In this document: positions 14,893 through 63,695 of the stretch, piece after piece
Layout: every line of letters starts with the position of its first letter
How positions within the stretch are numbered: the first letter of the stretch is position 1
Source of the DNA: a virus
Lineage: Duplodnaviria > Caudoviricetes
Virus record (IMG/VR): IMGVR_UViG_3300037400_001903
Location: 13,212 to 77,211 of that record
Direction: 5' to 3' (one strand)
DNA: 64,000 nt
Program-made: the position numbers and the translations under genes
The notes under the pieces: generated by a model
Seen by the model: only the letters and a program-made list of their open reading frames with translations
Told to the model about the DNA's origin: nothing
Databases searched by the model: none

Positions 14893-15153
14893 CTACTCAC
14901 TCTTGTCCTTTTCGTCTTCATCTTCAAACTCAACCTCTACCCCTCGCACTGTAACAGATTTCACAGGAACAGGCGGAAGCTCTTTGAGTAGCCCTTCAAT
15001 TAAATCCTTGTTCCAACCATTAAATGTCTTACCATTTATTACTACAAAGTTATTATAGTACTCTATAGTATGTGGCCCCTTTAGAAGTTCCTCCACTTCT
15101 ATAGTTTGTCTTGCCCTATTAGTGATATAGGAACTTGAAAATATATCTTGCAT
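14893..15153 (-). CDS. Hypothetical protein, first gene of the leftward operon
   Basis: ATG after GGAGGTAAAC. Confidence 0.7.
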   Translation of the reverse strand: MQDIFSSSYITNRARQTIEVEELLKGPHTIEYYNNFVVINGKTFNGWNKDLIEGLLKELPPVPVKSVTVRGVEVEFEDEDEKDKSE

Positions 15154-15169
15154 GTTTACCTCCATAATC

Positions 15170-15188
15170 CCTGGGCGTTTACCCCAGG
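15170..15188 (-). promoter_or_regulatory. GTAAACG-loop hairpin, copy 1
   Basis: Minus strand CCTGGG-GTAAACG-CCCAGG in the leader of the leftward operon. Confidence 0.7.
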
Positions 15189-15202
15189 CTCATTGTACTT
15201 AT

Positions 15203-15247
15203 ATTATAGCACGAGGAATGACAAATGTCAAGGGGAATGACAAATGT
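15203..15247 (-). promoter_or_regulatory. Consensus SigA promoter of the leftward operon with a 14 bp direct repeat over the -35
   Basis: TTGACA(15226-15231)-N17-TATAAT(15203-15208); GGAATGACAAATGT at 15215-15228 and 15234-15247. Confidence 0.85.
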
Positions 15248-15530
15248 TTTTGAGAAAGTTGTCTAGGGGTGAATTGGAATTTTCCAAAAATTCTGTGGGG
15301 CGTGCTAAAATTATATTATGTTGATGTTGTTTCCCAATTTAATATTATATTATGTTGGGTGTTGATGTTTAATTAGGGGGTGTCCCTCAACCTAAAGAGA
15401 GACAAACCCAAAATATATTCAACAACTAAACAACTCAATAAGAATATATTTTACTAAGACTAAGGTATTATATATTTTTGTTAAGATATAAAACTCATAG
15501 ACATTTAGTCTATTTAATCTCATAGATATT

Positions 15531-15815
15531 TTATCACCACCTCTCCGTAATTGATTTGCGAGAAGCCATAGTGGCGTTTGAACGTGTCAATGAATGAACG
15601 GAAGATTAAGACTTGCTCGAGCAGTGATGTGACGTAAGAAAGATTCCCTGAGCACAGGAGAACATTCGCATGTCCAGAACCGTATCGAGATGCCCCTGGT
15701 TGTTTGCTAGTGAGCTGATGGTCAAGAGGTAGCCTTGAATCAAACACGTTACCTACTGGTGGTGATAACTTTCTGTCCGCGATGGACGGACACTTGGGAT
15801 TCCCAAGCTTAAGTC
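15531..15815. ncRNA. Candidate structured non-coding RNA 1
   Basis: GC-enriched intergenic block closed by an 11 bp stem (15531-15541 / 15758-15768) with several internal hairpins; no credible ORF. Confidence 0.5.
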
Positions 15816-15852
15816 ATAGAAGCTTAGTCCCTTAGAGGAGAAAGGAAATAAT

Positions 15853-16182
15853 ATGACAAAGAATGAATTTGTTTTAACTTTAACTATAGCTATTGGTGAG
15901 GCATTTGCACGTCACGTAGCTGCTGCAGCTAAGACTCCTGAAGGTAAGAAGCCAGCTTATGTTCGCCCTGTAAAGATGAAGAATTATTTTTCAGATGAAG
16001 ATGCTCCAAGCTGTCTTGACTATGTACCTGACGAAGACTTCATATCAGTACGTTATTATGATGGAAATTATGTTATTACTTTTTTCGCTACTAACGGATT
16101 CGATTTTACTATTAAACACAGTGACTATTGGTTATGTGTTAATAAGTTTACTGAATATTTCTTAGCTATCTATAAAGCCTAG
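15853..16182 (+). CDS. Hypothetical protein, stand-alone gene in the control region
   Basis: 109 aa; GAGGAGAAAGGA RBS; codon style like the other genes. Confidence 0.75.
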   Translation: MTKNEFVLTLTIAIGEAFARHVAAAAKTPEGKKPAYVRPVKMKNYFSDEDAPSCLDYVPDEDFISVRYYDGNYVITFFATNGFDFTIKHSDYWLCVNKFTEYFLAIYKA

Positions 16183-16183
16183 T

Positions 16184-16202
16184 GACGAGCGTTTACCTCG
16201 TC
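16184..16202 (-). promoter_or_regulatory. GTAAACG-loop hairpin, copy 2
   Basis: Minus strand GACGAG-GTAAACG-CTCGTC. Confidence 0.7.
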
Positions 16203-16211
16203 TGAAAATGT

Positions 16212-16710
16212 GGAACCCTAGTGTTACAAAATTGGTATAAGCTAGGTTCCATTTTAAAAGTCATCAGAAATGACAAATGTCTCTCATGATGACAAAATAA
16301 AAACGGACCCTGGTGTTTTAAAATCAGTTAAGCTAGGTTCCTTTTGCACTTTTTCTGGCAAAAATGAGCTTGCACTCTTATTAGTCGAGTGCTAAAATAT
16401 ATTCTCACGTTGTTTTACTTCGGTTTGAGTGTGTGTTTTGTGTCGAGTGTGTTAGCATTTTGGTAAAAATACACCCTATCAAGCCTATGAAAACGACTGA
16501 AAATATATTGAAAACTCGTTTTTATATAAAAAAGTACCATTTGGAACCTAGCTTGTTCGAAATTGGAACGCTCAGGTCCGTTTTAAAAAAACTTTTTCTG
16601 TATATACATTTGTTCCCTAGACCTTTAAAACAATAGGGTATCATTTATTCTACAGGAAAAGTTTTTTGGATTCGGACCCTACTGCTTTAATTTTAAAACA
16701 ATAAGGTCCC
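16212..16710. repeat. Four 38-39 bp imperfect palindromic units (GGAACC/CGGACC ... GGTTCC/GGTCCS)
   Basis: Units at 16212-16250, 16304-16341, 16543-16580 (inverted) and 16673-16710; AAGCTAGGTTCC is exact in three. Confidence 0.75.
16369..16398 (+). promoter_or_regulatory. CIRCE (HrcA operator) overlapping a rightward SigA promoter
   Basis: CTTGCACTC-N9-GAGTGCTAA versus consensus TTAGCACTC-N9-GAGTGCTAA; TTGCAC-N17-TAAAAT with TGn extension. Confidence 0.8.
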
Positions 16711-16717
16711 CTATAAA

Positions 16718-16736
16718 GCTGGCGTAAACGGCCAGC
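16718..16736 (+). promoter_or_regulatory. GTAAACG-loop hairpin, copy 3
   Basis: Plus strand GCTGGC-GTAAACG-GCCAGC upstream of the rightward operon. Confidence 0.7.
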
Positions 16737-16749
16737 AATTAGAATGTTT

Positions 16750-17140
16750 TTTATTTAATATTCAACCAATAGGAACGATTGAAATATATCGCTCCTATCA
16801 TTGAGTATTAAATTACTCACTGCTAGTACAGGTTAAGAGCTTGCTAAGCAATTAAGGAGGTGATGGCTTTGTCCTCATCAGAAGTTCAAGGTGCAGTCGT
16901 AGACTGTAGTTCAAACACTTTATGCCTTTTGGTAGGCATTCTATCAGGAGGCTAGACATTCTGGTAAGTGTTTGAGGAATCTTCAACTCGGTGCATACCG
17001 TTTTGTGTTGAAGATATTTGATTGTTGATTACTTTTTTGTTGGTTCGATTGTATTAGAGCAGCAAACAGATGAAGCTGATAGTCTCTTGCTGCTTAGGTC
17101 TGGTATTCTTTCCTTGCTAAAGAATATCTCAGCACATTCT
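16750..17140 (+). ncRNA. Candidate structured non-coding RNA / leader 2
   Basis: Series of stems: 16892-16908, 16911-16920/16966-16975, 16979-16987/17007-17015, 17058-17065/17087-17094; no long ORF. Confidence 0.45.
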
Positions 17141-17178
17141 CTTAAATAAAATATATAGAAAAGGTAAGGTAAAATAAA

Positions 17179-17442
17179 ATGAAAAACAATAAGAGAAACG
17201 TAGTGAATTTTTTAGGAACAACTAACACTTATAAAGGAGAGCAAGTAGGCTCTATGGCTTATTATGCTAAGAAGGCTGAGGAAAGAAATGAAGCACGTAG
17301 CTTTCAAGAATTTTTCAGTAATAATTATTCTTCAAAGGTTATTAAGACTGATGAAGATATTGAAGAAGCAGCAGTTAATGCTCTTCAAGGTTCAGACTTT
17401 GAGTCTGAGTATTTAGAATATTTATTAGGAGGTAAGAGATAA
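17179..17442 (+). CDS. Hypothetical protein, first gene of the rightward operon
   Basis: 87 aa ORF with AAGGT RBS. Confidence 0.75.
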   Translation: MKNNKRNVVNFLGTTNTYKGEQVGSMAYYAKKAEERNEARSFQEFFSNNYSSKVIKTDEDIEEAAVNALQGSDFESEYLEYLLGGKR

Positions 17443-17816
17443 TGCCTATATTTTATACTAAGGATTTAACTATTAATGAGTTAAAGAAAGAAAAGAATTT
17501 AACTCTAAAAGAGTTAGAAAAAATAGTTGGTGTTGATTATACTATTTTATCTAAAATTTCTAACGGCTATCAGCCTTTAACAGAAGATATTATAGAAAAG
17601 TTTAGATATGCTTTTCCTGATATCTGCATAGTTGCTAAGTCTAAGAAAGAAATCATCGCTGAGTTAGAAGCCGAGAATGCTTATTTAAGAAATAGGGTTG
17701 CTATATTAGAAGAAGCAATCTCTGTTGCTTATGGAAAAGCTTTTCCTGCTGGATATGAACAAGATTTAGACCACGAACGTTCATGGGGCCCTGACCCTAG
17801 AAAGGAGGAAGATTAA
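17442..17816 (+). CDS. XRE/Cro-C1 helix-turn-helix regulator with C-terminal coiled coil
   Basis: LKKEKNLTLKELEKIVGVDYTILSKISNG; ELEAENAYLRNRVAILE. Confidence 0.8.
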   Translation: MPIFYTKDLTINELKKEKNLTLKELEKIVGVDYTILSKISNGYQPLTEDIIEKFRYAFPDICIVAKSKKEIIAELEAENAYLRNRVAILEEAISVAYGKAFPAGYEQDLDHERSWGPDPRKEED

Positions 17817-17817
17817 T

Positions 17818-18126
17818 ATGCCTATTACAGATATTTCTTCTATTGATTTAGAAAAAGAGATAGATAATTTCACTAAAGAGTTAGTGAGATTTACTGTTAC
17901 TATGCTTCATTTTTTCAAACCTGAAGAGTTCTTTGATGTATTAACTGATAAGTTATACTCATATTTATCATGTGTTGAAGATATGTATAAAGTTAATATC
18001 ATCAATGAACTCAACAAGTTTTATATAGCTGAACATCATCCTGAGATGTTTGAAGCTATATCTAAAAAGCTTGAGAAATTGTCTGAAGATGAAGACGAAG
18101 AAACTTATTATAAGGAGGAACAATAA
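17818..18126 (+). CDS. Hypothetical protein
   Basis: 102 aa with AAGGAGG RBS. Confidence 0.7.
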   Translation: MPITDISSIDLEKEIDNFTKELVRFTVTMLHFFKPEEFFDVLTDKLYSYLSCVEDMYKVNIINELNKFYIAEHHPEMFEAISKKLEKLSEDEDEETYYKEEQ

Positions 18127-18127
18127 T

Positions 18128-18574
18128 ATGAAACTTTTAATTGATTGGAGATTTAATTCTCAAGGTCAAGCTTATACTGCTTGCTGCATTCTAGACAAAT
18201 TTGAGACTGATGAGTTCTTTACTTATCAGGATTACTTACATTTATTTCCTACAGGAAACATTGTAGGTATTTGCGATTCTAAAGGTAGGCTTATACCTAA
18301 TAGATATGGTATAGACCTATCTAAATATTCTGATTCTTTACAACTTAATTCTTTATGCTCTACTTGTAAGCATAAAGATAATTGTAAGAATCATAAGAAT
18401 ATTATAGGCGACTGCCCTGTTAGACAGTTCGCTGCTAAAGCTTTATCCGCATCTGATTTTATAAAGGATGCTTATTATAAAGCTTTAGATGAGCTTGTAT
18501 CACTAGCTGATACATATTTCAAAGCTGCCATTTTATTTGACCCTGTAAAGAATATCTTGAAAGGAGGTGAATAG
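18128..18574 (+). CDS. Hypothetical protein with a Cys cluster
   Basis: CSTCKHKDNC...DCP; start moved to the ATG after AAGGAGG. Confidence 0.65.
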   Translation: MKLLIDWRFNSQGQAYTACCILDKFETDEFFTYQDYLHLFPTGNIVGICDSKGRLIPNRYGIDLSKYSDSLQLNSLCSTCKHKDNCKNHKNIIGDCPVRQFAAKALSASDFIKDAYYKALDELVSLADTYFKAAILFDPVKNILKGGE

Positions 18575-18575
18575 A

Positions 18576-18845
18576 ATGATGTATAATTATTTTATGTTAA
18601 TTGCTGAATTGATTTCTTTTTCTGAAGAGGAGGTTGTTGTATCTTATACACATCCTTCTCCTAATAGTGATGGTGTAAGAGAGACAACTGAGATAGCTGT
18701 TATCTCTTCACCTTTATTTTTTGAAATGTTACAGGAAATTCCTGTACATTCACTTATATCTATTAGAGGAAGAATTAGTGTTGACCTTTTAGGTAACACT
18801 ATTCTTGTTGCTGAAAGAATACTTGCAATGAAAGGAGGTGAATAA
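18576..18845 (+). CDS. Small OB-fold / SSB-like protein
   Basis: LISIRGRISVD...ILVAERI resembles the C-terminal strands of short SSB-type OB folds. Confidence 0.45.
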   Translation: MMYNYFMLIAELISFSEEEVVVSYTHPSPNSDGVRETTEIAVISSPLFFEMLQEIPVHSLISIRGRISVDLLGNTILVAERILAMKGGE

Positions 18846-18846
18846 T

Positions 18847-19371
18847 ATGGCTAAGGTTGACAAATCTTGTGCAAGACTTACTAAAGTTCTTGCTGAAAAA
18901 TTTGGTAAGCTAATTCATGATGCACCTAATGAAGCTATCCGTGCTAAGCTTAGAAAGTGTAATGCTTTCGGTAAGCATGCAAAGGATGCTTTAGCTGGTG
19001 TAGAAATTCCTGAGCATGTTGCTCAGAGAATGTATGAATTAATCAACAAATGTATTAACGATTGGTCTGACCAATATGTTAATGCTTTTTATGATGCATT
19101 AATTCAAGAGGATGTCGAAGAGAAGCAGATGTCTTTAGAGTTAGAAACTTCTAATTCTGAAGAGACTGTTTCTGAAACAGAGACTCTTGAGTTAGTTGAT
19201 GATAATGGTGTTAAGCATACAGTTGTTGTGAGCAACAAACCTTATCATTATGTTGTCATAATGAGACCTGATGGGTCTTATTATCAGCAAGAAGTTGATG
19301 CTGATACTTTTGATTTGAAAGATTTTGAATCAAGATTATCTATTGGTTATGCTGTTATTCAATACGTTTAA
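18847..19371 (+). CDS. Hypothetical protein
   Basis: GGAGGTG RBS; 174 aa. Confidence 0.7.
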   Translation: MAKVDKSCARLTKVLAEKFGKLIHDAPNEAIRAKLRKCNAFGKHAKDALAGVEIPEHVAQRMYELINKCINDWSDQYVNAFYDALIQEDVEEKQMSLELETSNSEETVSETETLELVDDNGVKHTVVVSNKPYHYVVIMRPDGSYYQQEVDADTFDLKDFESRLSIGYAVIQYV

Positions 19372-19552
19372 TCGTATTTGAATATAAATTTAAGGTCATA
19401 AAATCTATGGTAGGTTGGGAAACCTTAGGGTCTAAGCGTAAAGACATTCCTTTCTTTATAGATAAAATGATTAAAGATTCCTTTGACCTTTTTTTATTTT
19501 TCTTCCTATAAAATTTGAAAGTATTATAGGAAAGATTTTTATGAGGTGTCGT

Positions 19553-20032
19553 ATGAAAAAGACTATCGTTGAAAAAAGTAAATTTGCTCAAGCTTTAAAG
19601 CTTGACGTTAACACAGCAACTCGTGAAGAGATGGCTGCTGCACTTCTTGTTCTTAATGATTTATCATTAAAAGTTCAAGCACAAATTAAAAAGGTTACTT
19701 ATACTCTTGAGATGGAGAATGCTCGTCTTCTTCAAACTAGTATGTTTGATGATGAAGAGTTTAGTAACGCTGTTAATACAGTCACATTCACTGAAGAGAC
19801 TACAACTATCTATCATGTAGATAGAGATGCTGTATTATCTGCAGCTGGTGTTAAGTCTGTGAAGTATGATGACTGCGTAGAATCTCGTGCTATTGTAAAG
19901 GCTGAAGAGATTATTAAGCGTCATAAAGCAGGTACTCTTGACCCTAAGTATGCATCTGCAATATCAACTAATGATATTCATCAGGTTGCTATGGCTTTCG
20001 GTGAAGAGTCAAAAGAAGAGGAAAGCAAATAG
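19553..20032 (+). CDS. Hypothetical coiled-coil protein (paralog of 21596-22081)
   Basis: GAGGTG RBS; C-terminal KAGTLDPKYASAIST. Confidence 0.7.
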   Translation: MKKTIVEKSKFAQALKLDVNTATREEMAAALLVLNDLSLKVQAQIKKVTYTLEMENARLLQTSMFDDEEFSNAVNTVTFTEETTTIYHVDRDAVLSAAGVKSVKYDDCVESRAIVKAEEIIKRHKAGTLDPKYASAISTNDIHQVAMAFGEESKEEESK

Positions 20033-20043
20033 GAGGTATAAAC

Positions 20044-21591
20044 ATGGAAAGATTTGCTAATATTAATGCTATGTTGGGAGTAGGTATGCTCCCTTTATTT
20101 GAACTAAAGTCTGGTAATAGATTATTAGTTCTTTGTGATAACTCTAAGGTTATCATTGAAGTTCCTATCGTAGAATCTGGTAAGAGTTTCTACGGTTATG
20201 TCAATACTAGTAATGAACAATTAGAGACAGCTATCTCTAATTTCATCACTGATAATTTTAAGTCTACATATCCTGATATGACTCGTAAGGTTACTATCAA
20301 GACTAAGCCTTATGCTTTTACTGCTGATGATTTTATTGTTACAGGTATTGCTAAACAATCTGTTGGTGGTTTACAAAAGTATACTTATTATGAGAAGCTT
20401 TTGGCACCAGAAGGATTTGATTTCTCTGCATTTAAGAAGTCAGTAGTTGTTTCTACTGCAAGAGATTATTCTGCTTGTCAATTAGATGAGGAAGCTCAGA
20501 TGGTTCTTAAAGATAACGCAGCAGTCTTCAGTTATTTTACACCTAATATAAATGACTGGGCTGACAATGTTAAGCTTGCTTATTATGCTGTTCAACAAGG
20601 CAAGGTTAATCTTGTTATCTTTAAGGGACCAGCTGGAACTGGTAAATCAATTCTTGCTAGAGAGTTTGCTTATCTAATGAAAGCTCCTCTATTATCTATG
20701 CAGTGTACTGATGGAACAACTGCTGATGATTTGATGGGTAAAGCTGTAGTTAATACTGACCCATCTGTTCCTGGTCAATTTACTTATGCACTTGGACCAG
20801 TTCTTAAGTGTAGAAATAAAGGTTGGCAACAACTTCTTGATGAAGGTAATATGTCACAAGCTAACTGTATCAATATCCTTAACCAGTTTGGTGATGATAC
20901 TAATATTATTGAATGGGATGGTAAGTCTTATACTTGTTCTCCTAACTTTGTATTGTATTTCACAATGAACTCTGGTTATGAAGGAACTAATTCATTAAAC
21001 GCTGCTTTAAAATCTAGAACTATTGTTGTAGATGTTCCTAGATTAACTAAGACAGAGTTTGCTGATAGACTTTTTACTTATGTAACTAATAAATTATCAG
21101 CTACATTAAGTAAGGATTTCTGTAAAGAGGTATTTTCTTTTACAGAATATATGCAAGAGACTGCTAAAAAGTTTGCAGAGAATGTAGAGTTCTGTATCAG
21201 AAATGGGCAAAAGTTATGTGCTTTAGTTTTAACTAAGGCTTGTAGTGAAAGTGAATTCACTGCTGCAGTTTATGAATCTTATGTAGATTTCTTATCTATG
21301 GATAATGATAACACTGACACTTTAAATATTTTAAAGCAGTCTGTTGAAATGAAAGACAAGATTAAGAAACTATATAATCTTTATGATTATAAGGTTGTTG
21401 AATCTGTTGATGAGTCTAAGTTATTCAGCTTTGATGATGTTCTATTTATTGATGATGAAGATTCATCTTCAAATACAACTACATCAGGTTTTACTTCTAA
21501 TGAATCATCTTCATTTGATGAGGACTTAGATGATTTAGATAATTTCTTGAATAGTGATGCCAAAGAAATAAATGAAAATGAGGAGGCTTAA
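20044..21591 (+). CDS. MoxR/CbbQ-type AAA+ ATPase
   Basis: Walker A GPAGTGKS, Walker B LLDE, FTMNSGYEG..LNAALKSR; acidic tail. Confidence 0.85.
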   Translation: MERFANINAMLGVGMLPLFELKSGNRLLVLCDNSKVIIEVPIVESGKSFYGYVNTSNEQLETAISNFITDNFKSTYPDMTRKVTIKTKPYAFTADDFIVTGIAKQSVGGLQKYTYYEKLLAPEGFDFSAFKKSVVVSTARDYSACQLDEEAQMVLKDNAAVFSYFTPNINDWADNVKLAYYAVQQGKVNLVIFKGPAGTGKSILAREFAYLMKAPLLSMQCTDGTTADDLMGKAVVNTDPSVPGQFTYALGPVLKCRNKGWQQLLDEGNMSQANCINILNQFGDDTNIIEWDGKSYTCSPNFVLYFTMNSGYEGTNSLNAALKSRTIVVDVPRLTKTEFADRLFTYVTNKLSATLSKDFCKEVFSFTEYMQETAKKFAENVEFCIRNGQKLCALVLTKACSESEFTAAVYESYVDFLSMDNDNTDTLNILKQSVEMKDKIKKLYNLYDYKVVESVDESKLFSFDDVLFIDDEDSSSNTTTSGFTSNESSSFDEDLDDLDNFLNSDAKEINENEEA

Positions 21592-21595
21592 TATT

Positions 21596-22081
21596 ATGGC
21601 AAAGAAAAATATTAATTATGAAGATGTAGCAGTAGAGGTTACTGCTATGTCTTCTAAAGACGCAATTATTTTATCAGGTAATGACAAGTCAACACCTGCA
21701 ACTTTATATGATACTGTTAGAGCTATGGCTGCTTTAGATAACACTATTAGTAATTGTAGTAAAGCTAAGGATTTATTACAAGAGACTCTTAATTCTTATA
21801 GTGAGTCTGATATTAAAGCATTATTCCCTCAGGGTTATGCTAGTATTAATGGTAAGATATATCAGATTAGACATAAAATTGAGAGTAAGATGGATTATAA
21901 TGTTGATACTTTAGCTAGTATGCCTGAAGCTAAACCTTATTTATCAGTTGTTCCTGCTTACAACAAGCTTGATAAAGCTGCTTATAATAAGGATTTACTT
22001 GCTGGCTCAGTTGATGCTAAAGTATCAGCAGCTATATCCATTACTACTCATGAATCTAATGAGTTAAAGGAGGTGAAATAA
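21596..22081 (+). CDS. Hypothetical protein (paralog of 19553-20032)
   Basis: C-terminal LAGSVDAKVSAAISI. Confidence 0.7.
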   Translation: MAKKNINYEDVAVEVTAMSSKDAIILSGNDKSTPATLYDTVRAMAALDNTISNCSKAKDLLQETLNSYSESDIKALFPQGYASINGKIYQIRHKIESKMDYNVDTLASMPEAKPYLSVVPAYNKLDKAAYNKDLLAGSVDAKVSAAISITTHESNELKEVK

Positions 22082-22083
22082 TT

Positions 22084-22449
22084 ATGGCTCTTAATTTTAA
22101 TTCTGTAGAGAATGCAGCTTACTATATGAAGTGTAGTCTAGAGAAGAAAGGTTATCAGGTTGAAGCTACATCTGCTCCTTCTTCTCTTTCTTCTGGTGCT
22201 AGCTCTGATTATAGAAAGTTTGTTTCTTTTTCTCAAAGAATTCTAGATGGTTCTGGAGTTCTTAAAGGTTATATAACTTATAGAGTAACTTTAACTACTT
22301 CTGTTAAACGTCCTAAGTTTAGTAGTTATGAGTTATTCGATGAAGTTTATAACTCTGTTCATAAGGTGCATCTTAAAGATTATCCTACTGCTGATGATTG
22401 CTTTAAAGATGTATACAATTATATACTTGACCATTATAAAATGGTATAA
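22084..22449 (+). CDS. Hypothetical protein
   Basis: 121 aa with AAGGAGGTG RBS. Confidence 0.7.
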   Translation: MALNFNSVENAAYYMKCSLEKKGYQVEATSAPSSLSSGASSDYRKFVSFSQRILDGSGVLKGYITYRVTLTTSVKRPKFSSYELFDEVYNSVHKVHLKDYPTADDCFKDVYNYILDHYKMV

Positions 22450-22465
22450 TTAAGGAGGTAGAATT

Positions 22466-24403
22466 ATGGCAACAGTATATGATTCTTTAAATTTTATTAG
22501 ATACATTTATTCATCTAAGTTATTACCTAGATTTAAAATGTTATCTAAAGGTATGTTAGTTAAAGGTGGCGTTTATTGTTCATCTAATGTTTTATTTAAT
22601 TTTACTAGACAGGCTGATTCTGCTTATTGTAGATTAGCATCTTCATCTACTAGTTCTATTCCTGTATTTAAGATTGTTTTAGGTGGTACTTTAATTCGAA
22701 ATGTTTGTGGTTTACCTTATAATACTTCTAATCGTTTGGTTTTAAAGAGTGCTGTTGATGATATTAAGATGTCAACTGTCGCTCTTTTCTTTCACGAAAT
22801 GGGTCATCTTTTGTATACAGATATGACTGATACTAGAATCCTTAACTATAAGGATAAAGATTATATTAATTTTATCCATAGTATTCATAATATTTTTGAG
22901 GATGTTTATCTTGAGAAGTTTGGTCTTCGTAGAGATTATCCTGTTACTCAAAAGTATTTTAAGTTTTTAACAGCTAGAGTTTTTATTTCTCAAGCTAAAT
23001 CTTATAGTGATGATGGTTCTTCTCAAAGTTTTATTAATTATATTTTATTGAAACTTCGTTGCCCTAAAACTTTAACAGCTAAGAATGCTGTGTTTGATTC
23101 TGTATCAAAAGATATTTTGCCTATGTTTTCTGATATCCTTCATGATGATGATGGTACTAGCAGAATAACTAAGCAGATAGCTTTAGCTGAATGGCTTATA
23201 GCTAATACTTCATTAGACTTTAAGACAGTTACTCCACCAGAAGAGGAACTTCCTACAGGTGTTGGTCCTGGTTCAGGTCCTGCTAAGCCTGGTAAACCTG
23301 AGACAGGAGCTGGTGGTGGCGTTGGTTCTAATGCTCAAAACGGTGCTGGTGACCCAACTAATCGTGGTGGAAATAGAGGTTCTGGTGACATTGAAGATAA
23401 TCCTACACCTGAAGAGCGTCCTGTTTTTAAATCATTAGATGAGATGGAGCAATCTCTAGAAGACGAAGACATTGTTCCAACTTATAATGAAGAGAATGAT
23501 ATTCGTGTTGATGATTTACAGGAGATTGATGATGCTTTCAATAGTGTTTTATCTATTGATGCTATTGGAAATCATGAGTGGGTTATTGCAAACAAGATGT
23601 TTGGCTTTGGACCTAATGTTAAAGAAGCTGTAGATAAAGCTATGCTTGATATGAATCCTATTGCTTTACAAGTTATTAAATCTCTTAAGTTATTTAAAGG
23701 TCAAATTAGACCTAGAAATACTGCTGGATTTAATTCTGGCAAGCTTCATATTCCTACAGCTATTAAGTCTGTATCATCTGGTTTGCCTACACCTTATCTT
23801 TTTCAAAGAAAGATAGCTCGTGGTCAAGCTGCTGATTTGGCTATTAGTATTCTATGTGATAATTCAGGCTCTATGTCTGGTAATAAATCACATGTATGTA
23901 CTAGAGCTATGTTAGCATTAGCACAAGCTTGTGATAATGTAGGTATACCTATTGAAGTTAATTGTTTTACTAATGGTTCTACTAACTATACTATTCAGAT
24001 GAAGTCTTTTGAAGATAAGTTTGCTGATTCCAAATATTATTTTGGTATTACTGATAGTGATATATGTTATCATTATACTTTTGATAGTGATATTCCTGTA
24101 TTCTGTAGTAATGAGGATGAAGTTAATTTATATAATGTTTGGAAAAGATTCCTTAAGAATAAACATAAAGATAAACTTATCTTTGTTATTTCTGATGGAC
24201 AAACTTGTGGTTCTTCATCTGATTTAAGAGGTCTTATTCAAGAGATAAAGCAATCTGGTGTAAAGATAATTGGTTTAGGTATTCAATCTAAAGCTGTTGC
24301 TTCATTGTATCCTGAATATAAATTATTTGATACTGAAAGTTCTTTACAAGGCTTACCAGATTATCTTCTTGAAACTCTTAACAGCTTAATAAGAAAAGAT
24401 TAA
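22466..24403 (+). CDS. VWA-domain protein (CobT-like MoxR partner) with N-terminal HExxH motif
   Basis: FFHEMGH...NIFED; Gly/Pro linker; MIDAS DNSGSM and ISDG. Confidence 0.85.
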   Translation: MATVYDSLNFIRYIYSSKLLPRFKMLSKGMLVKGGVYCSSNVLFNFTRQADSAYCRLASSSTSSIPVFKIVLGGTLIRNVCGLPYNTSNRLVLKSAVDDIKMSTVALFFHEMGHLLYTDMTDTRILNYKDKDYINFIHSIHNIFEDVYLEKFGLRRDYPVTQKYFKFLTARVFISQAKSYSDDGSSQSFINYILLKLRCPKTLTAKNAVFDSVSKDILPMFSDILHDDDGTSRITKQIALAEWLIANTSLDFKTVTPPEEELPTGVGPGSGPAKPGKPETGAGGGVGSNAQNGAGDPTNRGGNRGSGDIEDNPTPEERPVFKSLDEMEQSLEDEDIVPTYNEENDIRVDDLQEIDDAFNSVLSIDAIGNHEWVIANKMFGFGPNVKEAVDKAMLDMNPIALQVIKSLKLFKGQIRPRNTAGFNSGKLHIPTAIKSVSSGLPTPYLFQRKIARGQAADLAISILCDNSGSMSGNKSHVCTRAMLALAQACDNVGIPIEVNCFTNGSTNYTIQMKSFEDKFADSKYYFGITDSDICYHYTFDSDIPVFCSNEDEVNLYNVWKRFLKNKHKDKLIFVISDGQTCGSSSDLRGLIQEIKQSGVKIIGLGIQSKAVASLYPEYKLFDTESSLQGLPDYLLETLNSLIRKD

Positions 24404-24417
24404 TTGGAGGTATTGAT

Positions 24418-25698
24418 ATGAAATTATTTGAAGCTGCTAAATCTGTTAGTTTAACAGATATTTTTACTGAGATGTGTGGTGGAACTATTCCTAATCGTAG
24501 GAAGAATTCCCTTACATCTTGTCCTATTTGTGGAGCAGGGACTAACACTCCTTGCTTCGGCCTTTATGGCAAAACAAAAAACATTCTTGATAAATATAAA
24601 TGTTTCTCTTGTGGTGCACAAGGAGATTCTATATCTTTAGTAAAGAATGTTTATGGTTTAGTTGATGATGTTGAAGCTGCTAAAGAAATTTGCAGATATT
24701 TTAATGTTGAATATGAAGAGACTAAAGCCTCTGTTCATAATGATAAGTATGATAAGTATGTTAGAACTTATAATTATATTGCTAAACTTTTTAATGTTTT
24801 GTATCGTAGTGATTTTAATCCTGATAAAAATTATTTTGAGAACAGAGGTTTATCTACTGAACTTATTGATAAATATCAGTTAGGCTATTGTCCTAATATG
24901 CTTATCACTAAAGAGAATAAACATATCTCTTTACAAGATTTAATTCTTCGTATGGGTTTAACTGTTGAAGAAGGTCTTGTTAATTCTTATGGTGAATCTG
25001 TTTTCTCTGGTAGATACATCTTCCCTATTAGAAATTCTAAAGGTGATGTTATTGCTTTTAGTGGTAGAACTTTAGATGCTAATGCTCCTAAGTATGTTAA
25101 TACTTGTGAGACAGAGTTCTTTAAGAAGTCTTTTGCTTTATTCAATTATGATAGAGCTAAAGCTTATCCTACAGTCTATGTTGTTGAGGGTTATATGGAT
25201 GCCTTATCTTTAATTGAATCAGGAATACCTAATGTTGTTGCTGCTATGGGTACAGCTTTTACTGAAAGTCATATATCAGCACTTAAAGGTAAGCAGATTG
25301 TTCTTGCTCTTGACCATGATGGTGCTGGTATGACTCATATCTTTAATATCATAACTCAGTTTAGAGATATCTATTTTAAAGTTATGTATACTCCACAAGA
25401 GTATAAAGATTTTAATGAGATGCTTATGGCTAAGCAAGACATTAAATCTTATTTATCTAAGTATGAGTTAAAAGCTGGACCAGAGTTTGTCATAAGACTT
25501 CTTACACATACTCAGGATATGAGTAAGTTAGAATCTCGTTCAGATATTTGGAAGACTATCGCATCTTTGATAGGTTCTACTAACTATTCTTATCAAAAGA
25601 AGTATCCACTTAATACTTTATATACTCCTGTTGAGATAGATTATTTCTGGAAGATGTATTCTAAATTTATAAAAAGAAATAGAAAGGAGGTGAAATAG
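24418..25698 (+). CDS. dnaG: DnaG-type DNA primase
   Basis: N-terminal Zn finger (CPIC...CFSC), PKYVN, Toprim VVEGYMDAL and ALDHDGAG. Confidence 0.9.
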   Translation: MKLFEAAKSVSLTDIFTEMCGGTIPNRRKNSLTSCPICGAGTNTPCFGLYGKTKNILDKYKCFSCGAQGDSISLVKNVYGLVDDVEAAKEICRYFNVEYEETKASVHNDKYDKYVRTYNYIAKLFNVLYRSDFNPDKNYFENRGLSTELIDKYQLGYCPNMLITKENKHISLQDLILRMGLTVEEGLVNSYGESVFSGRYIFPIRNSKGDVIAFSGRTLDANAPKYVNTCETEFFKKSFALFNYDRAKAYPTVYVVEGYMDALSLIESGIPNVVAAMGTAFTESHISALKGKQIVLALDHDGAGMTHIFNIITQFRDIYFKVMYTPQEYKDFNEMLMAKQDIKSYLSKYELKAGPEFVIRLLTHTQDMSKLESRSDIWKTIASLIGSTNYSYQKKYPLNTLYTPVEIDYFWKMYSKFIKRNRKEVK

Positions 25699-25699
25699 T

Positions 25700-26239
25700 A
25701 TGGAGGATTTAAAGTCTAGGGATTTAATTAATGTTACTAACCATTGTTGTAATGGTGTTTGTAGTAATTGTGGTGAATGTTGTACTGATATAATACCTCT
25801 TACGAAGAACGAGGTAAAGAATATTCGTGCTTATATTAAGAAGCATAATATTAAAGAACGTGTTTATATGGATGATACTACCTTTGATTTTCGCTGTCCT
25901 TTTTATATTAAGGATAGTGATAAGCATTGTGCTATTTATCCTGTTCGACCTTTGATTTGTCAGAAGTTTAAATGTAATCAGGATAAGTCTGTTATAGCTT
26001 CTAATAAAGAATTGCTATCTATGAGGGCTGATTATAATAAATTTTATAATTGGTCTTATCATCATACTTTCATAAGTTTACATAATTTATTTTATAAAAA
26101 TTATGCTTATGAGATTCAATCTATTTATAGTCTTTGTCTTAATAACAAAGAGTTAATGCAAGATTTTTTAAATAAAGAATGTCTTAATAAATATTCTTTC
26201 ACTGATTTAGATATTGAATTTGAAGAGGAGGAAAAGTAA
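25700..26239 (+). CDS. YkgJ-family Cys-cluster protein
   Basis: CSNCGECC...CPF...CAIYPVRPLICQKF. Confidence 0.85.
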   Translation: MEDLKSRDLINVTNHCCNGVCSNCGECCTDIIPLTKNEVKNIRAYIKKHNIKERVYMDDTTFDFRCPFYIKDSDKHCAIYPVRPLICQKFKCNQDKSVIASNKELLSMRADYNKFYNWSYHHTFISLHNLFYKNYAYEIQSIYSLCLNNKELMQDFLNKECLNKYSFTDLDIEFEEEEK

Positions 26240-26241
26240 TC

Positions 26242-26469
26242 ATGTCTAAAGTTTCTATTGTAAAAATTTGTCCTGTTTGTGAAAAGGTTTCACAACTATC
26301 TGTCGATTCTGATAAATATAATCAGTATATGCAACGTAAAGATTTAATTCAAAATGTTTTTCCTGAACTTAATCCAGCTCAACGTGAGTTTATTATGACT
26401 GGTTATTGTTCTGATTGTCAACATATTATATTTGGAAGTAATTATACTATTGAGGAGGAGGAAAGATAA
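26242..26469 (+). CDS. Small zinc-finger protein
   Basis: CPVC ... CSDC. Confidence 0.7.
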   Translation: MSKVSIVKICPVCEKVSQLSVDSDKYNQYMQRKDLIQNVFPELNPAQREFIMTGYCSDCQHIIFGSNYTIEEEER

Positions 26470-26470
26470 T

Positions 26471-27079
26471 ATGCCTAACTATTGTGATAATGGATTGAAC
26501 ATTAAGTTCGAATCTTTAATTGATTTAAAACATTTTATTTTTATACATTTTAATAATAAGGAACTAGATTTTAATACTATAGTTCCTGAACCTAAAACCA
26601 TTGATGAGTGTCCTAGAAAATATTCTCTTTTATCTGAACAAGAGAAAAAAGATGCTCATATTGTTTCTTATGAAGATAGAGAATGGTTTAATTGGTATCT
26701 TTGGCATTGCGATTTCTGGGGTACAAAATGGAATTCTTGTTCCACAGATTATTATATTGATACTAAAACATTAACTTTATATGTTTCATTTACTACAGCA
26801 TGGTCTCCTGCTATACCTATTGTTCATAAGTTAATTGACATGTACCCATCTTGTGAGATTCATTTTACTTATTATGAATCTGGTATGTGTTTCGCTGGAT
26901 TTATAGATTATGAATCTGGTGGAATAATAGAGAATCAGTTATCTCCAGATGACGGTTTAGATTATTATCAGTTCTTATATGATAATGATTATGAATCAGA
27001 AGATACATTAACTGACCCAGATTGTTTTAATTTATCTGTTGTTGATGGCAAAGTTAAATATAGAAAGGAGGTGAAATAA
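26471..27079 (+). CDS. DUF1281/YubB-like ferredoxin-fold phage protein
   Basis: MPNYCDN, LDFNTIVP, WYLWHCDFWGTKWN, FTTAWSP. Confidence 0.8.
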   Translation: MPNYCDNGLNIKFESLIDLKHFIFIHFNNKELDFNTIVPEPKTIDECPRKYSLLSEQEKKDAHIVSYEDREWFNWYLWHCDFWGTKWNSCSTDYYIDTKTLTLYVSFTTAWSPAIPIVHKLIDMYPSCEIHFTYYESGMCFAGFIDYESGGIIENQLSPDDGLDYYQFLYDNDYESEDTLTDPDCFNLSVVDGKVKYRKEVK

Positions 27080-27080
27080 T

Positions 27081-27362
27081 ATGAGTATTCTATCTGATGT
27101 TAAACAAGAGAATTTTAATTCTGTTAAGGATTTCTTAGCAGCTAATCTTTTCTATCAACGTGTATATTATATACCTGTTGATTTGAAGAATAAGGATTGG
27201 GGTTGTTGCCCTGCTTATCCTTCTAATGAAGAGTTGTTAGAAAAGTTTGCTGATGATGAATGTGTTTATGAGATTTATATCGAGCCTGATTGTATCAAAA
27301 AGAGTTTAATTATTTACACTCGTAAAGCAATTAAACCTGGTATTTTATTTGAGGGGGCGTAG
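27081..27362 (+). CDS. Hypothetical protein
   Basis: 93 aa with AAGGAGGTG RBS. Confidence 0.7.
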   Translation: MSILSDVKQENFNSVKDFLAANLFYQRVYYIPVDLKNKDWGCCPAYPSNEELLEKFADDECVYEIYIEPDCIKKSLIIYTRKAIKPGILFEGA

Positions 27363-27363
27363 T

Positions 27364-27813
27364 ATGTTAAAAGAATTTTTAAAACCTTTTGATATTGTTT
27401 CAGCTCCTTATGTAGATTTGGAAGGTAATATTAAATCATTTTCTAATGGCAATCAACAGAAAGGTTTATTCATGGTTGTTGCTGTAGATAATGGTAATGT
27501 TATTGCTTGTAAAGTTACCTCTCAATCTACATTACATAATTCTCCTGATTTTACTTATACTCTACTTCAAGATTCTCATCAATTTTTGAGAGCCACATCT
27601 TATATTCAGTTGACTAAGCCTCATACATTGGGTGTTCCATCTTGTCAAAAGATTGGTGAGGTTGCCCTTTTCTGTAGAGCACATATAAAATCACAGCTTA
27701 AACTTTTGTTTGACACTATTGGTAATATTTTACAAGTTAATATTCCTGTGCAGAAGTATGTTAGTCCTAACATTATTCCACGTAGATTTGGTGGGGTAGT
27801 TATTAAGAAATAA
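27364..27813 (+). CDS. PemK/MazF-like fold protein, orphan
   Basis: FDIVSAPY...K.LFMVV...ACKVTSQ...SYIQLTKPHTL...IGEV pattern. Confidence 0.6.
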   Translation: MLKEFLKPFDIVSAPYVDLEGNIKSFSNGNQQKGLFMVVAVDNGNVIACKVTSQSTLHNSPDFTYTLLQDSHQFLRATSYIQLTKPHTLGVPSCQKIGEVALFCRAHIKSQLKLLFDTIGNILQVNIPVQKYVSPNIIPRRFGGVVIKK

Positions 27814-27860: not shown

Positions 27861-29375
27861 TTATGCAGTTTGACTTATTAAGATATAAGCTTTTAAGTAG
27901 CTGCAAGCTATTGATTTAGCATTTCTAATTGCTGTATCAATGCTTGTGAAGCTATCAATTATTCCTTTCTCATATAAATTAACTATGCAATTATTTTGTA
28001 CGTCTAGCCCACATTCTAAATCTTCTAGTGTCATACGCTTTGGCTTCTTCAAGCCTGCATTACTGATGATTTTCAAACAAGGTTCTTGTAATGCTTTTAT
28101 AATGTGTTTGTATTTGCCTGATAAGGAAAGTAAATATAACGCTTTACCACCACCAGGAAGAATACCATCACGACAAGCACAACGAACTGCACCTATCGCA
28201 TCATCTAATTTTAAACGAATCGTAGTGAATTCAGTAATAGTCTGTGCAGCAATCTTAATCTTAGTTACACCTGCTGTTAGGTTTGCTAAACGTCTGTTGA
28301 TAACATCAGTTCTGATTATTCCTGTGTTGAATTCCTTGTCTTCAAGTTCCTTCTTGTAAGACTTAACTCTCTTCTCAACTTCTTTTGAATCAGAGCTGCA
28401 AAGTATTGTAGTCTTGTCTTGCTCAACAATAATCTTGTTAGCTGTTCCTGCATAAGCTAAACTGTAATCAGTTGTGCCTAGTGTAGGTGATTGAATCTTA
28501 CCGTTTGAACGAGCAGCAATGTCTAAGAATACTTCCTCTGGTTTAGAGTCGTTGATAAATACAATCATGAATCTTAATTTGTTTTGAATAAGATTATCTA
28601 GTAATATCTTTAAGCTTTCAGGACTGAAATCTTTTGATAAGAAGAATACTAATGGTTGATTTGGATTTTCAATCGAGTCAAATAATACTTTGATTCCGTT
28701 TCGTGTTAAGATTCCTTCAGCTAATAGGATTAGTCTAGCATTTTCTGCTTCCCATTTTCCCTCATCATTGCATAGTTGTTTCATTTCATCTGAGAAATAT
28801 CCTGAATCAATAACCATACCATCAACATGTTCGATAGAAGATTCAGCTGACTTACGGTCATGCTCAATAATAACATTCATGTTTGAACCTGCATACTTGT
28901 AAGCTTCAGCTACTAGTTCACCGATGGCAGGTATCTTAGTTGTTATATTAGCAACATTTCTTACCATGTCAGGTGAATCAATAGGCTTCTTCATAGTTTG
29001 TAAATCCTTTAGAGCTGCTTCAACCTCTTCATTTATCATGTCAGATGCTTCTTGTGGATGCTTTCCCTTCTTTATTAGGTCTAGCCCAGCTTTGTATAGC
29101 TCATTAGTTAATAAAACTGTTAGAGTTGTACCATCAAAAGCTCTCTTCTCTGTGTTGTTAGCAGCCTCAATAATAGATAATGCAACCATTCTTTCAAACT
29201 GGTCATCAAATTTCATGCATTCTTTCGCAACAGTAACACCATCGTCAGTTAGGAAAGGTCTAGAGAATTCATCCTGTAGAACTGCTAGCCTTCCCTTAGC
29301 TCCCATTGTAGGAGTAACGATGTCACTCATCTTTTGAAATGTTTCTTTTATTATCTTGATGTCTTTTGTCTTCAT
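27861..29375 (-). CDS. groEL: Phage-encoded GroEL-like chaperonin
   Basis: TMGAKG, TDDGVTVAKE, FDGTT, DDA..A...GILPGGG; start moved to MKTKDI after AAGGA; no GGM tail. Confidence 0.92.
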   Translation of the reverse strand: MKTKDIKIIKETFQKMSDIVTPTMGAKGRLAVLQDEFSRPFLTDDGVTVAKECMKFDDQFERMVALSIIEAANNTEKRAFDGTTLTVLLTNELYKAGLDLIKKGKHPQEASDMINEEVEAALKDLQTMKKPIDSPDMVRNVANITTKIPAIGELVAEAYKYAGSNMNVIIEHDRKSAESSIEHVDGMVIDSGYFSDEMKQLCNDEGKWEAENARLILLAEGILTRNGIKVLFDSIENPNQPLVFFLSKDFSPESLKILLDNLIQNKLRFMIVFINDSKPEEVFLDIAARSNGKIQSPTLGTTDYSLAYAGTANKIIVEQDKTTILCSSDSKEVEKRVKSYKKELEDKEFNTGIIRTDVINRRLANLTAGVTKIKIAAQTITEFTTIRLKLDDAIGAVRCACRDGILPGGGKALYLLSLSGKYKHIIKALQEPCLKIISNAGLKKPKRMTLEDLECGLDVQNNCIVNLYEKGIIDSFTSIDTAIRNAKSIACSYLKAYILISQTA

Positions 29376-29481
29376 AAATTCCTTTGTCTTCCTCTTCGTC
29401 ACTATTTATAGCAGCTACTATAGCAATGGCTATGATGATTCCTATGAATATCACACCCATTATTATGTATACTTTAGTCAA
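29323..29481 (-). CDS. Small single-pass membrane protein between groES and groEL (not in the ORF track)
   Basis: TTG start overlapping the groES stop (alternative ATG at 29460): YIIMGVIFIGIIIAIAIVAAIN then an acidic/charged tail; 3' end overlaps the groEL start. Confidence 0.55.
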   Translation of the reverse strand: MTKVYIIMGVIFIGIIIAIAIVAAINSDEEEDKGIYEDKRHQDNKRNISKDE

Positions 29482-29761
29482 TAGCCTCTGCGTCCTTTAC
29501 TAATACTAATATAATATCTTTAGCATTAACAGCGAATCCTTCGAATCCATCAAAGTTGATTGGCTGTGCTGCGAACATAGGATAGTAGATAATATTACCT
29601 ACCTTAAGACAATCCTTTCTGTTAGAGATAACAATCTCTCCACAGATGATGTCTTTCTTTCCTCTCTGTTCAGTTGCTGATACTACTAGTCCTGCTTTAG
29701 TAGTGACCTTTTCAGTTATCGGTCTGATAATTACATTTCCATTCAAACAATTATATTTCAT
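29474..29761 (-). CDS. groES: GroES-like co-chaperonin
   Basis: LNGNVIIRP...TTKAGLVV...GEIV...LKVGNIIYY...KDII; adjacent to groEL. Confidence 0.85.
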   Translation of the reverse strand: MKYNCLNGNVIIRPITEKVTTKAGLVVSATEQRGKKDIICGEIVISNRKDCLKVGNIIYYPMFAAQPINFDGFEGFAVNAKDIILVLVKDAEAID

Positions 29762-32815: not shown

Positions 32816-32858
32816 ATTATAGCATAGACTTTATTTCTTTGCAATTATTTGCTATAAT
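32816..32858. promoter_or_regulatory. Divergent promoters
   Basis: Leftward TTGCAA-N17-TATAAT (32844-32816); rightward extended -10 TGCTATAAT (32850-32858). Confidence 0.7.
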
Positions 32859-63663: not shown

Positions 63664-63695
63664 AAAAAAGGACTGCTCTTTCAAGCAAGTCCTTA
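63664..63695 (-). terminator. Terminator after the major capsid gene
   Basis: AAGGACTTGCT-TGAA-AGAGCAGTCCTT followed by TTTT. Confidence 0.7.

Follow-up and report, generated by a model that had tools for sequence, protein, structure and literature searches.

An inverted repeat of the CIRCE type overlaps a candidate promoter in a phage genome

The window analysed here, that is the whole stretch of 64,000 nt, belongs to a 77,211-bp IMG/VR record of an uncultured phage, which is about 71% complete and has a G+C content of about 31%. Two + strand ORFs (15853-16182 and 17179-17442) border a 1-kb gap without long ORFs, and this gap holds a 27-bp inverted repeat of the CIRCE type, a candidate operator for the heat-shock repressor HrcA (Table 1). 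The element is made of the left arm CTTGCACTC (16369-16377), the spacer TTATTAGTC (16378-16386) and the right arm GAGTGCTAA (16387-16395), and it is followed by AAT (16396-16398). When compared to the CIRCE consensus TTAGCACTC-N9-GAGTGCTAA, it agrees at 16/18 arm positions with a spacer of exactly 9 nt; the two mismatches, at positions 1 and 3, are both in the left arm (cTTGCACTC), and the right arm is perfect. A search of the window with up to 3 mismatches and one of the entire 77,211-bp record with up to 4 gave no second CIRCE. The composition-aware chance expectation for a site with up to 2 mismatches in the 77,211-bp record is 0.0011, a value to be read against the roughly 250,000 windows scanned, among which chance sites at 2 mismatches are expected somewhere. 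A CIRCE with a perfect right arm had been reported on this phage DNA in an earlier, sequence-only reading, and the match at 16/18 positions, the exact 9-nt spacer and the uniqueness of the site in the record confirmed it. The way in which the element is conserved and its identity to promoters of bacterial chaperone genes, both described below, make a chance origin unlikely.

Table 1. Features of the phage locus and of its chaperonin unit (positions in the window).
Feature	Position	Strand	Remarks
Conserved non-coding module	16207-16736	+	Operator-promoter, quasi-palindromic repeats and 17-bp inverted repeat; about 77% nucleotide identity to G001 and L061
CIRCE-type inverted repeat, candidate HrcA operator	16369-16395	none	Arms and 9-nt spacer; arms invariant and spacer variable in three phages
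-35 hexamer TTGCAC	16370-16375	+	Made by the variant left arm; layout of other phage promoters; invariant in relatives
TG-extended -10, TGC TAAAAT	16390-16398	+	TG and TAA are part of the right arm; TGC TAAATT in relatives
5' stem-loop of the predicted transcript	16403-16495	+	Folding and covariation; start predicted near 16405
Quasi-palindrome followed by GTTTT	16543-16588	+	Possible terminator or attenuator ending an RNA of about 185 nt; weak, absent from terminator-scan calls
GC-rich hairpin GCTGGC-GTAAACG-GCCAGC	16718-16736	+	End of the module; identical in three phages
Gene cluster	17179-27813	+	HTH protein, AAA_5 ATPase, VWA protein, primase, others
groEL	27861-29402	-	Pfam Cpn60, 7.6e-35
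groES	29474-29761	-	Pfam Cpn10, 2.2e-5
Promoter of the groES/groEL-containing unit, TTGCAA-17-TGC TATAAT	32816-32844	-	Separate unit; without CIRCE

The variant left arm would supply the -35 hexamer TTGCAC, and the right arm would supply the TG and the first bases of the -10 (TAAAAT, 16393-16398), the two hexamers being separated by a 17-nt spacer that ends in TGC. Since the arms provide these bases, a bound HrcA dimer would cover the stretch from -35 to -10 and exclude RNA polymerase. The two left-arm deviations from CIRCE (TTG for TAG) turn TTAGCA into the -35-like TTGCAC, and because TTGCAC matches TTGACA at only 3/6 positions the promoter was not listed by a generic promoter scan. The superposition of CIRCE on a promoter had also been proposed earlier; the overlap of TTGCAC and of the -10 with the arms stands, whereas the notation N17-TGCTAAAAT used to describe it is loose, TGC lying inside the 17 nt. 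A promoter reading on the reverse strand was rejected, TTAGCA having no -10 partner there.

A census of the pattern TTGnnn-N14-TGn-TAnnnT gave seven matches in the window. The layout of the 16370 promoter is shared by four clear host-type promoters of the phage, all on the - strand in non-coding gaps (at 63684, 32844, 15231 and 10809), in which a -35 of TTGAAA, TTGCAA, TTGACA or TTGTCA is followed by TGn TATAAT. Among the five TG-extended promoters in non-coding DNA, the one that overlaps CIRCE is alone on the + strand, and the only other + strand match within the 17179-27813 span, at 25548, is inside the primase ORF. Being the sole non-coding match on the + strand, the CIRCE promoter is thus the one recognisable host-type promoter ahead of the gene cluster.

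The arms of the element are invariant in related phages while the spacer varies

An exact-pattern scan of IMG/VR for TTGCACTC-N9-GAGTGCTAA returned 13 loci, one of which is in a 76,295-bp record (G001); its nucleotide identity to this phage is 70-77%, and the two are syntenic. Metagenome contigs yielded a third phage (L061) via a 21-nt block just upstream of CIRCE, a flanking sequence that imposes no selection for CIRCE itself. Across these three phages, two of which are close to each other, the arms TTGCACTC and GAGTGCTAA are invariant at 17/17 bases, while the spacers (TTATTAGTC, TAACTAGAC and TACACTGAC) are invariant at 3/9 and variable at 6/9 positions, and the remaining module is invariant at 72% of its positions (Fisher tests, p = 0.0004 for arms versus spacer and p = 0.005 for arms versus the rest of the module). 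In the comparison of G001 with L061, 41/553 aligned columns differ, yet four consecutive spacer bases (16380-16383) are among the differences, which points to a local multi-base change or to an unusually fast turnover of the spacer.

The ORF upstream of the module displays only 57% protein identity, and G001 lacks counterparts of the first genes downstream, including that of an HTH_3 protein (17442-17816). In their place G001 carries a pentapeptide-repeat gene (L030 10581-11450, - strand), to which the small ORFs of this phage are unrelated; the start of the + strand cluster is a slot prone to swaps. When two more conserved blocks of the module were compared with IMG/VR, G001 was the only match; neither 15000-19000 nor the module had a nucleotide match in GenBank phages, and searches for related loci with the 109-aa neighbour and the AAA_5 proteins returned no relatives. 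Alignment of the AAA_5 protein yielded distant ATPases only; its closest homologues, all from Logan/ENA, range from P0002 at 83% down to P0006 at 59%.

The candidate promoter is aimed at a conserved structured RNA

Folding of the region 16403-16495 gave -24.4 kcal/mol (z -3.1) for the + strand when compared to -9.1 kcal/mol (z +1.1) for the - strand, and folding of 16403-16740 gave -95 (z -6.5) and -79 kcal/mol (z -3.2), respectively. The structure begins directly after the predicted start. Across the three phages no pair of the central stem is broken, and the stem displays 3 compensatory pairs along with numerous GU/GC switches. No Rfam family matched within 15100-17300, and a 67-aa ORF (16433-16636) was rejected as coding, the relatives having a 1-nt gap inside it. 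The comparative evidence upheld the direction given earlier to the promoter, namely a conserved CIRCE-type operator fused to a putative sigma-A-type promoter and aimed at the structured RNA and the operon.

The first gene after the module in G001 encodes a 289-aa pentapeptide-repeat protein; its start lies some 405 nt downstream of the -10 and some 55 nt downstream of the hairpin with the GTAAACG loop, and when compared to G001 this phage has an extra 440 nt before ORF 17179. The counterpart of the hairpin lies approximately at L030 11512-11530 (- strand). Since the phage encodes a giant RNA-polymerase-like protein, the hairpin at 16718-16736 may be a promoter for the phage polymerase, which would give the cluster two inputs. 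The module also contains a 17-bp perfect inverted repeat (16585-16602 and 16655-16672, AAAAAACTTTTTCTGTA and TACAGGAAAAGTTTTTT) around one of the quasi-palindromic repeats. Both of its arms fall in blocks that show 100% identity between the three phages, and it may form a helix in the RNA or act as a signal in the DNA, for instance an origin.

The same composite precedes chaperone genes in bacteria

The exact 20-base composite TTGCACTC-N9-GAGTGCTAAAAT of the phage site was found at 24 loci in a bacterial collection of 185,579 species with one genome each, when compared to about one chance match estimated from the size of the collection. These loci belong to Oscillospiraceae, Lactobacillaceae, Patescibacteria, Chloroflexota and one actinobacterium, and the ORFs that follow the composite encode chaperones in nearly all cases, as judged by their first residues. 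Pfam assigned all of the 10 downstream genes submitted to it (10/10) to chaperones, with two GroES, two DnaJ, four Clp ATPases and two Hsp90. The genes found after the composite are htpG and clp in Oscillospiraceae, clp in Weissella and other Lactobacillaceae, and groES, dnaJ and clp in Patescibacteria and Chloroflexota. Concomitantly, hrcA was present in 5/5 genomes tested among those with the composite.

In the Bacillota and Patescibacteria cases the composite operator sits between the -35 and -10 positions. In Chloroflexota, a separate TTGACA promoter is found downstream of the composite, so that the AAAT tail is not always a -10. In four loci from Gracilibacteria, Patescibacteria and Saccharibacteria (L034, L035, L043 and L045), only 6-8 nt separate TAAAAT from the start codon of dnaJ or of a clp ATPase gene; were TAAAAT the -10, the heat-shock mRNAs of these loci would be leaderless. 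All 20 specified bases are identical between the bacterial composite promoters and the phage site; the bacterial promoters drive chaperone genes 5-125 nt downstream, whereas the phage copy is followed by a structured RNA of about 340 nt and then by non-chaperone genes.

A host protein as the predicted binder of the element

No hrcA gene was found in the record of this phage or in G001, and the binder would therefore have to be a host protein. The neighbouring HTH_3 protein was considered as a conserved binder and rejected, since it is absent from G001, where the site persists. AGGAGG-type ribosome-binding sites precede 33/43 ORFs and TGA is used as a stop codon; the ribosome-binding signals and the predicted promoter signals (TTGaca/TGnTATAAT) fit Bacillota-like hosts and speak against Bacteroidota. 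Sampling of one candidate phylum, to which an Oscillospiraceae genome with the composite belongs, showed hrcA in 151/151 genomes; the gene was absent from the control genomes of E. coli, Deinococcus and Bacteroides thetaiotaomicron.

The DNA polymerase and GroEL have protein matches of about 30% to phages of many different hosts, and so neither gives a host call. Pfam searches with 39 further ORFs revealed no lysin or other host marker; one of these ORFs has a Tad2-like Thoeris anti-defence domain (PF11195, 1.4e-25) and another has a DUF1281_C/Api92-like match. Nothing in the sequence features examined points to Bacillus subtilis as the host, and neither the nucleotide search of GenBank phages nor the protein matches of the DNA polymerase and GroEL revealed a cultured relative.

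A predicted HrcA-controlled switch for the gene cluster

From the sequence and position of the element, its conservation pattern, the composite found before bacterial chaperone genes and the strand-specific RNA structure, we infer HrcA binding, a start site, repression and read-through into the operon. On this basis we favour, with some reserve, the reading that the 27-bp element is a working operator for the host HrcA, located inside the core of a promoter for the host RNA polymerase and tying the phage cluster to folding stress. The gene cluster would then probably be switched by the protein-folding stress of the host. The promoter would start the conserved structured RNA of about 340 nt, and read-through from this RNA would express the + strand cluster of accessory and replication genes.

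It is established that GroEL/GroES keeps HrcA active and that unfolded proteins or heat release HrcA, a circuit known as the GroE titration model (PMC8533110). Applied to the phage, free host GroEL/GroES would keep HrcA active and the promoter held down, while occupation of the chaperonin or a rise in temperature would release HrcA and let the promoter fire. A possible trigger would be late infection, with structural proteins loading the chaperonins; besides, replicated phage DNA would compete with the host operators for HrcA. Repression in healthy cells would appear to come at a cost to the phage, unless the operon has a second promoter as well.

The closest known systems are the CIRCE/HrcA class I operons of Bacillus subtilis and many other bacteria (groESL and hrcA-grpE-dnaK-dnaJ). 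The phage site is like them in the 9-bp arms and the exact 9-nt spacer, as well as in combining conserved arms with a free spacer; the sigma-A-type promoter on which they lie is predicted for the phage site, and the GroE-HrcA titration circuit that governs them would also be expected for the phage site (PMC8533110, PMC3842655). In contrast to these operons, the phage site is on a phage genome, no gene for the repressor accompanies it, and its left arm, with TTG for TAG, doubles as a -35. No chaperone gene was found among the ORFs of the + strand cluster 17179-27813, so the genes that follow the site are not the chaperones by which a class I heat-shock regulon is defined.

CIRCE elements in other phages and the question of HrcA titration

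A perfect canonical CIRCE occurs at no fewer than 113 loci in IMG/VR, and many of the perfect sites among the matches listed precede groES, hsp20, htpG or hrcA. In L012, CIRCE is followed by a 68-aa ORF and, about 1.3 kb further on, by a Cpn60-like gene. Perfect CIRCE elements are also present in viral contigs of 5-7 kb (L081 4982-5008 and likewise L067, L075, L094, L106, L116, L119 and L133). In contigs of the L081 type, CIRCE is located between divergent genes, one hsp20-like and the other for rolling-circle replication (Pfam REP_ORF2-G2P, 1.8e-17), and the start of the replication gene is 12 nt from CIRCE.

A Cpn60 gene was found in none of five large phage records with a perfect CIRCE, two of which are complete genomes with terminal repeats. 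G006 (L069 11790-12156; 167,250 bp, complete, terminal repeats) displays a promoter, CIRCE, a ribosome-binding site and a 105-aa ORF, and has no Cpn60; G007 (L123 4885-5243) has two CIRCE sites among TGTGAAAAAATTCACAA repeats, again with no Cpn60. In G008 (L137 7037-7100; 171,958 bp, complete, no Cpn60) two perfect CIRCE sites lie 37 nt apart. G006, G007 and G008 are all complete or nearly complete genomes. G004, a 41.9-kb fragment with no Cpn60 gene, carries four tandem CIRCE with a 49-nt period (17792-17965; L115 5424-5548), three perfect and one with 1 mismatch, most of them followed by a small palindrome GTTAGA-N4-TCTAAC, and a TTGATT...TATAAT promoter comes after the array. From its layout, the G004 array looks like a multi-operator or an HrcA sponge.

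Such rows of CIRCE with no gene to control, as the four sites in G004 and the two in G008, lend weight to the idea that the phage site is a decoy: at hundreds of genome copies, phage sites would soak up HrcA and derepress the host groESL and dnaK, which would provide chaperones for assembly, the promoter overlap being secondary. Here, there is one site per genome and no array, the phage already brings its own GroES/GroEL, and the site falls precisely between the -35 and the -10 of the promoter ahead of a conserved RNA and an operon. With only one copy, and that copy in such a promoter position, a pure decoy role becomes less likely in this phage, and we consider it unlikely, keeping the operator for host HrcA as the preferred reading; the decoy and sensor roles can be compatible.

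The phage chaperonin and a possible feedback on HrcA

The groES/groEL genes reported at 27861-29761 in the sequence-only reading are borne out by Pfam matches to Cpn60 and Cpn10, and the CIRCE-type site is about 11 kb from groEL. G001 retains GroEL at 81% and GroES at 69% protein identity. A feedback loop had been put forward earlier, and in the form considered here phage GroEL/GroES, made from its own constitutive promoter, would mature the host HrcA, which would in turn shut the CIRCE promoter and thereby impose a chaperonin-timed switch-off on the + strand cluster. In agreement with this, CIRCE and groES/groEL are both conserved in G001, the groES/groEL unit has a strong promoter free of CIRCE, GroE enhances HrcA binding in several bacteria (PMC8533110), and for Campylobacter phages it has been suggested that a co-chaperonin encoded by the phage may alter how HrcA is tuned (PMC4534711).

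Against the loop, the GroEL of this phage shares no more than about 30% identity with the GroEL proteins of the phage collection searched, and HrcA would be a putative client of it. The expected co-occurrence of CIRCE and groEL across phages failed to appear: both were found together only in the close relative G001, 0/5 CIRCE-bearing large phages have Cpn60, and CIRCE is missing from G002, the single record that encodes a distantly related GroEL (27% identity). The co-presence of the two in this phage lineage makes a GroEL/GroES loop possible there, and as an account of the element it is improbable. A wider version, in which the host HrcA is a clock wound by the phage, is speculative and unlikely: the phage's own chaperonin would raise HrcA activity and shut the CIRCE promoter after an early burst, a flood of capsid proteins titrating the chaperonins would reopen it, and reading or draining HrcA would be common in large phages. 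The reading of the element as an operator that senses the state of the host chaperonin, through the host HrcA, is the one that we retain.

Possible promoter constraint, other binders and host-derived origins

A large part of either arm also serves as -35 or extended -10, and part of the conservation could therefore come from promoter constraint alone. The element might then be only a promoter, or the operator of another phage or host protein, as suggested by the other palindromes of which the module is full, with its CIRCE likeness coincidental. The five arm bases that are outside the promoter elements (TC after the -35 and GAG before the TG) are nevertheless invariant (about p = 0.03, hand calculation) while 6/9 bases between them vary, and the 20-base composite is identical to bacterial chaperone promoters. 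Besides, the site is in single copy, unlike typical phage repressor operators, and the adjacent HTH gene is not kept in G001. We thus hold a fortuitous likeness to be quite unlikely, and an HrcA operator fused to the promoter remains the preferred reading. That the element is the core of an attachment site in a host CIRCE, or a relic of a captured host groESL promoter, could be thought of in a phage that carries groES/groEL and is very improbable, with no tyrosine or serine recombinase found in 77 kb (the record being 71% complete), a gene set that looks lytic and includes its own DNA polymerase, primases and helicase, a distance of 11 kb between the site and groEL, and arms that a relic would not keep while its spacer drifts.

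Host regulators on phage promoters

The borrowing of a host stress repressor as a sensor is known from LexA operators on phage promoters, as in CTXphi, in the tum gene of coliphage 186 and in the Bacillus phage GIL01. The phage described here would be like them in using a host stress repressor as its own sensor; they differ in that DNA damage is sensed instead of protein-folding stress, and in that they are mostly temperate. In the lytic Bacillus phages phi29 and Nf, Spo0A boxes are present on early promoters and origins, and binding was shown by footprinting (PMC2731898). We regard this as the closest parallel of its kind: in phi29 and Nf, and by prediction from the DNA in our case, a virulent-type phage carries on its promoters the binding sites of a global regulator of the host, and its programme follows host physiology; the difference is that the sporulation phosphorelay is read there and folding stress here, with binding predicted. 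Full-text literature searches found no paper on CIRCE in a phage promoter.

If the proposed reading is true, protein-folding stress would join DNA damage, read through LexA, and sporulation, read through Spo0A, as host states sensed by phages, and one 27-bp site, one promoter and one repressor would make a simple and testable case of it. The element would also be a natural, compact stress-responsive promoter for Gram-positive hosts. It would help to explain why a perfect CIRCE is present in many large phage genomes without chaperone genes, and its occurrence on many unrelated large phages would imply that reading or draining the heat-shock repressor of the host is a common and so far undescribed phage strategy.
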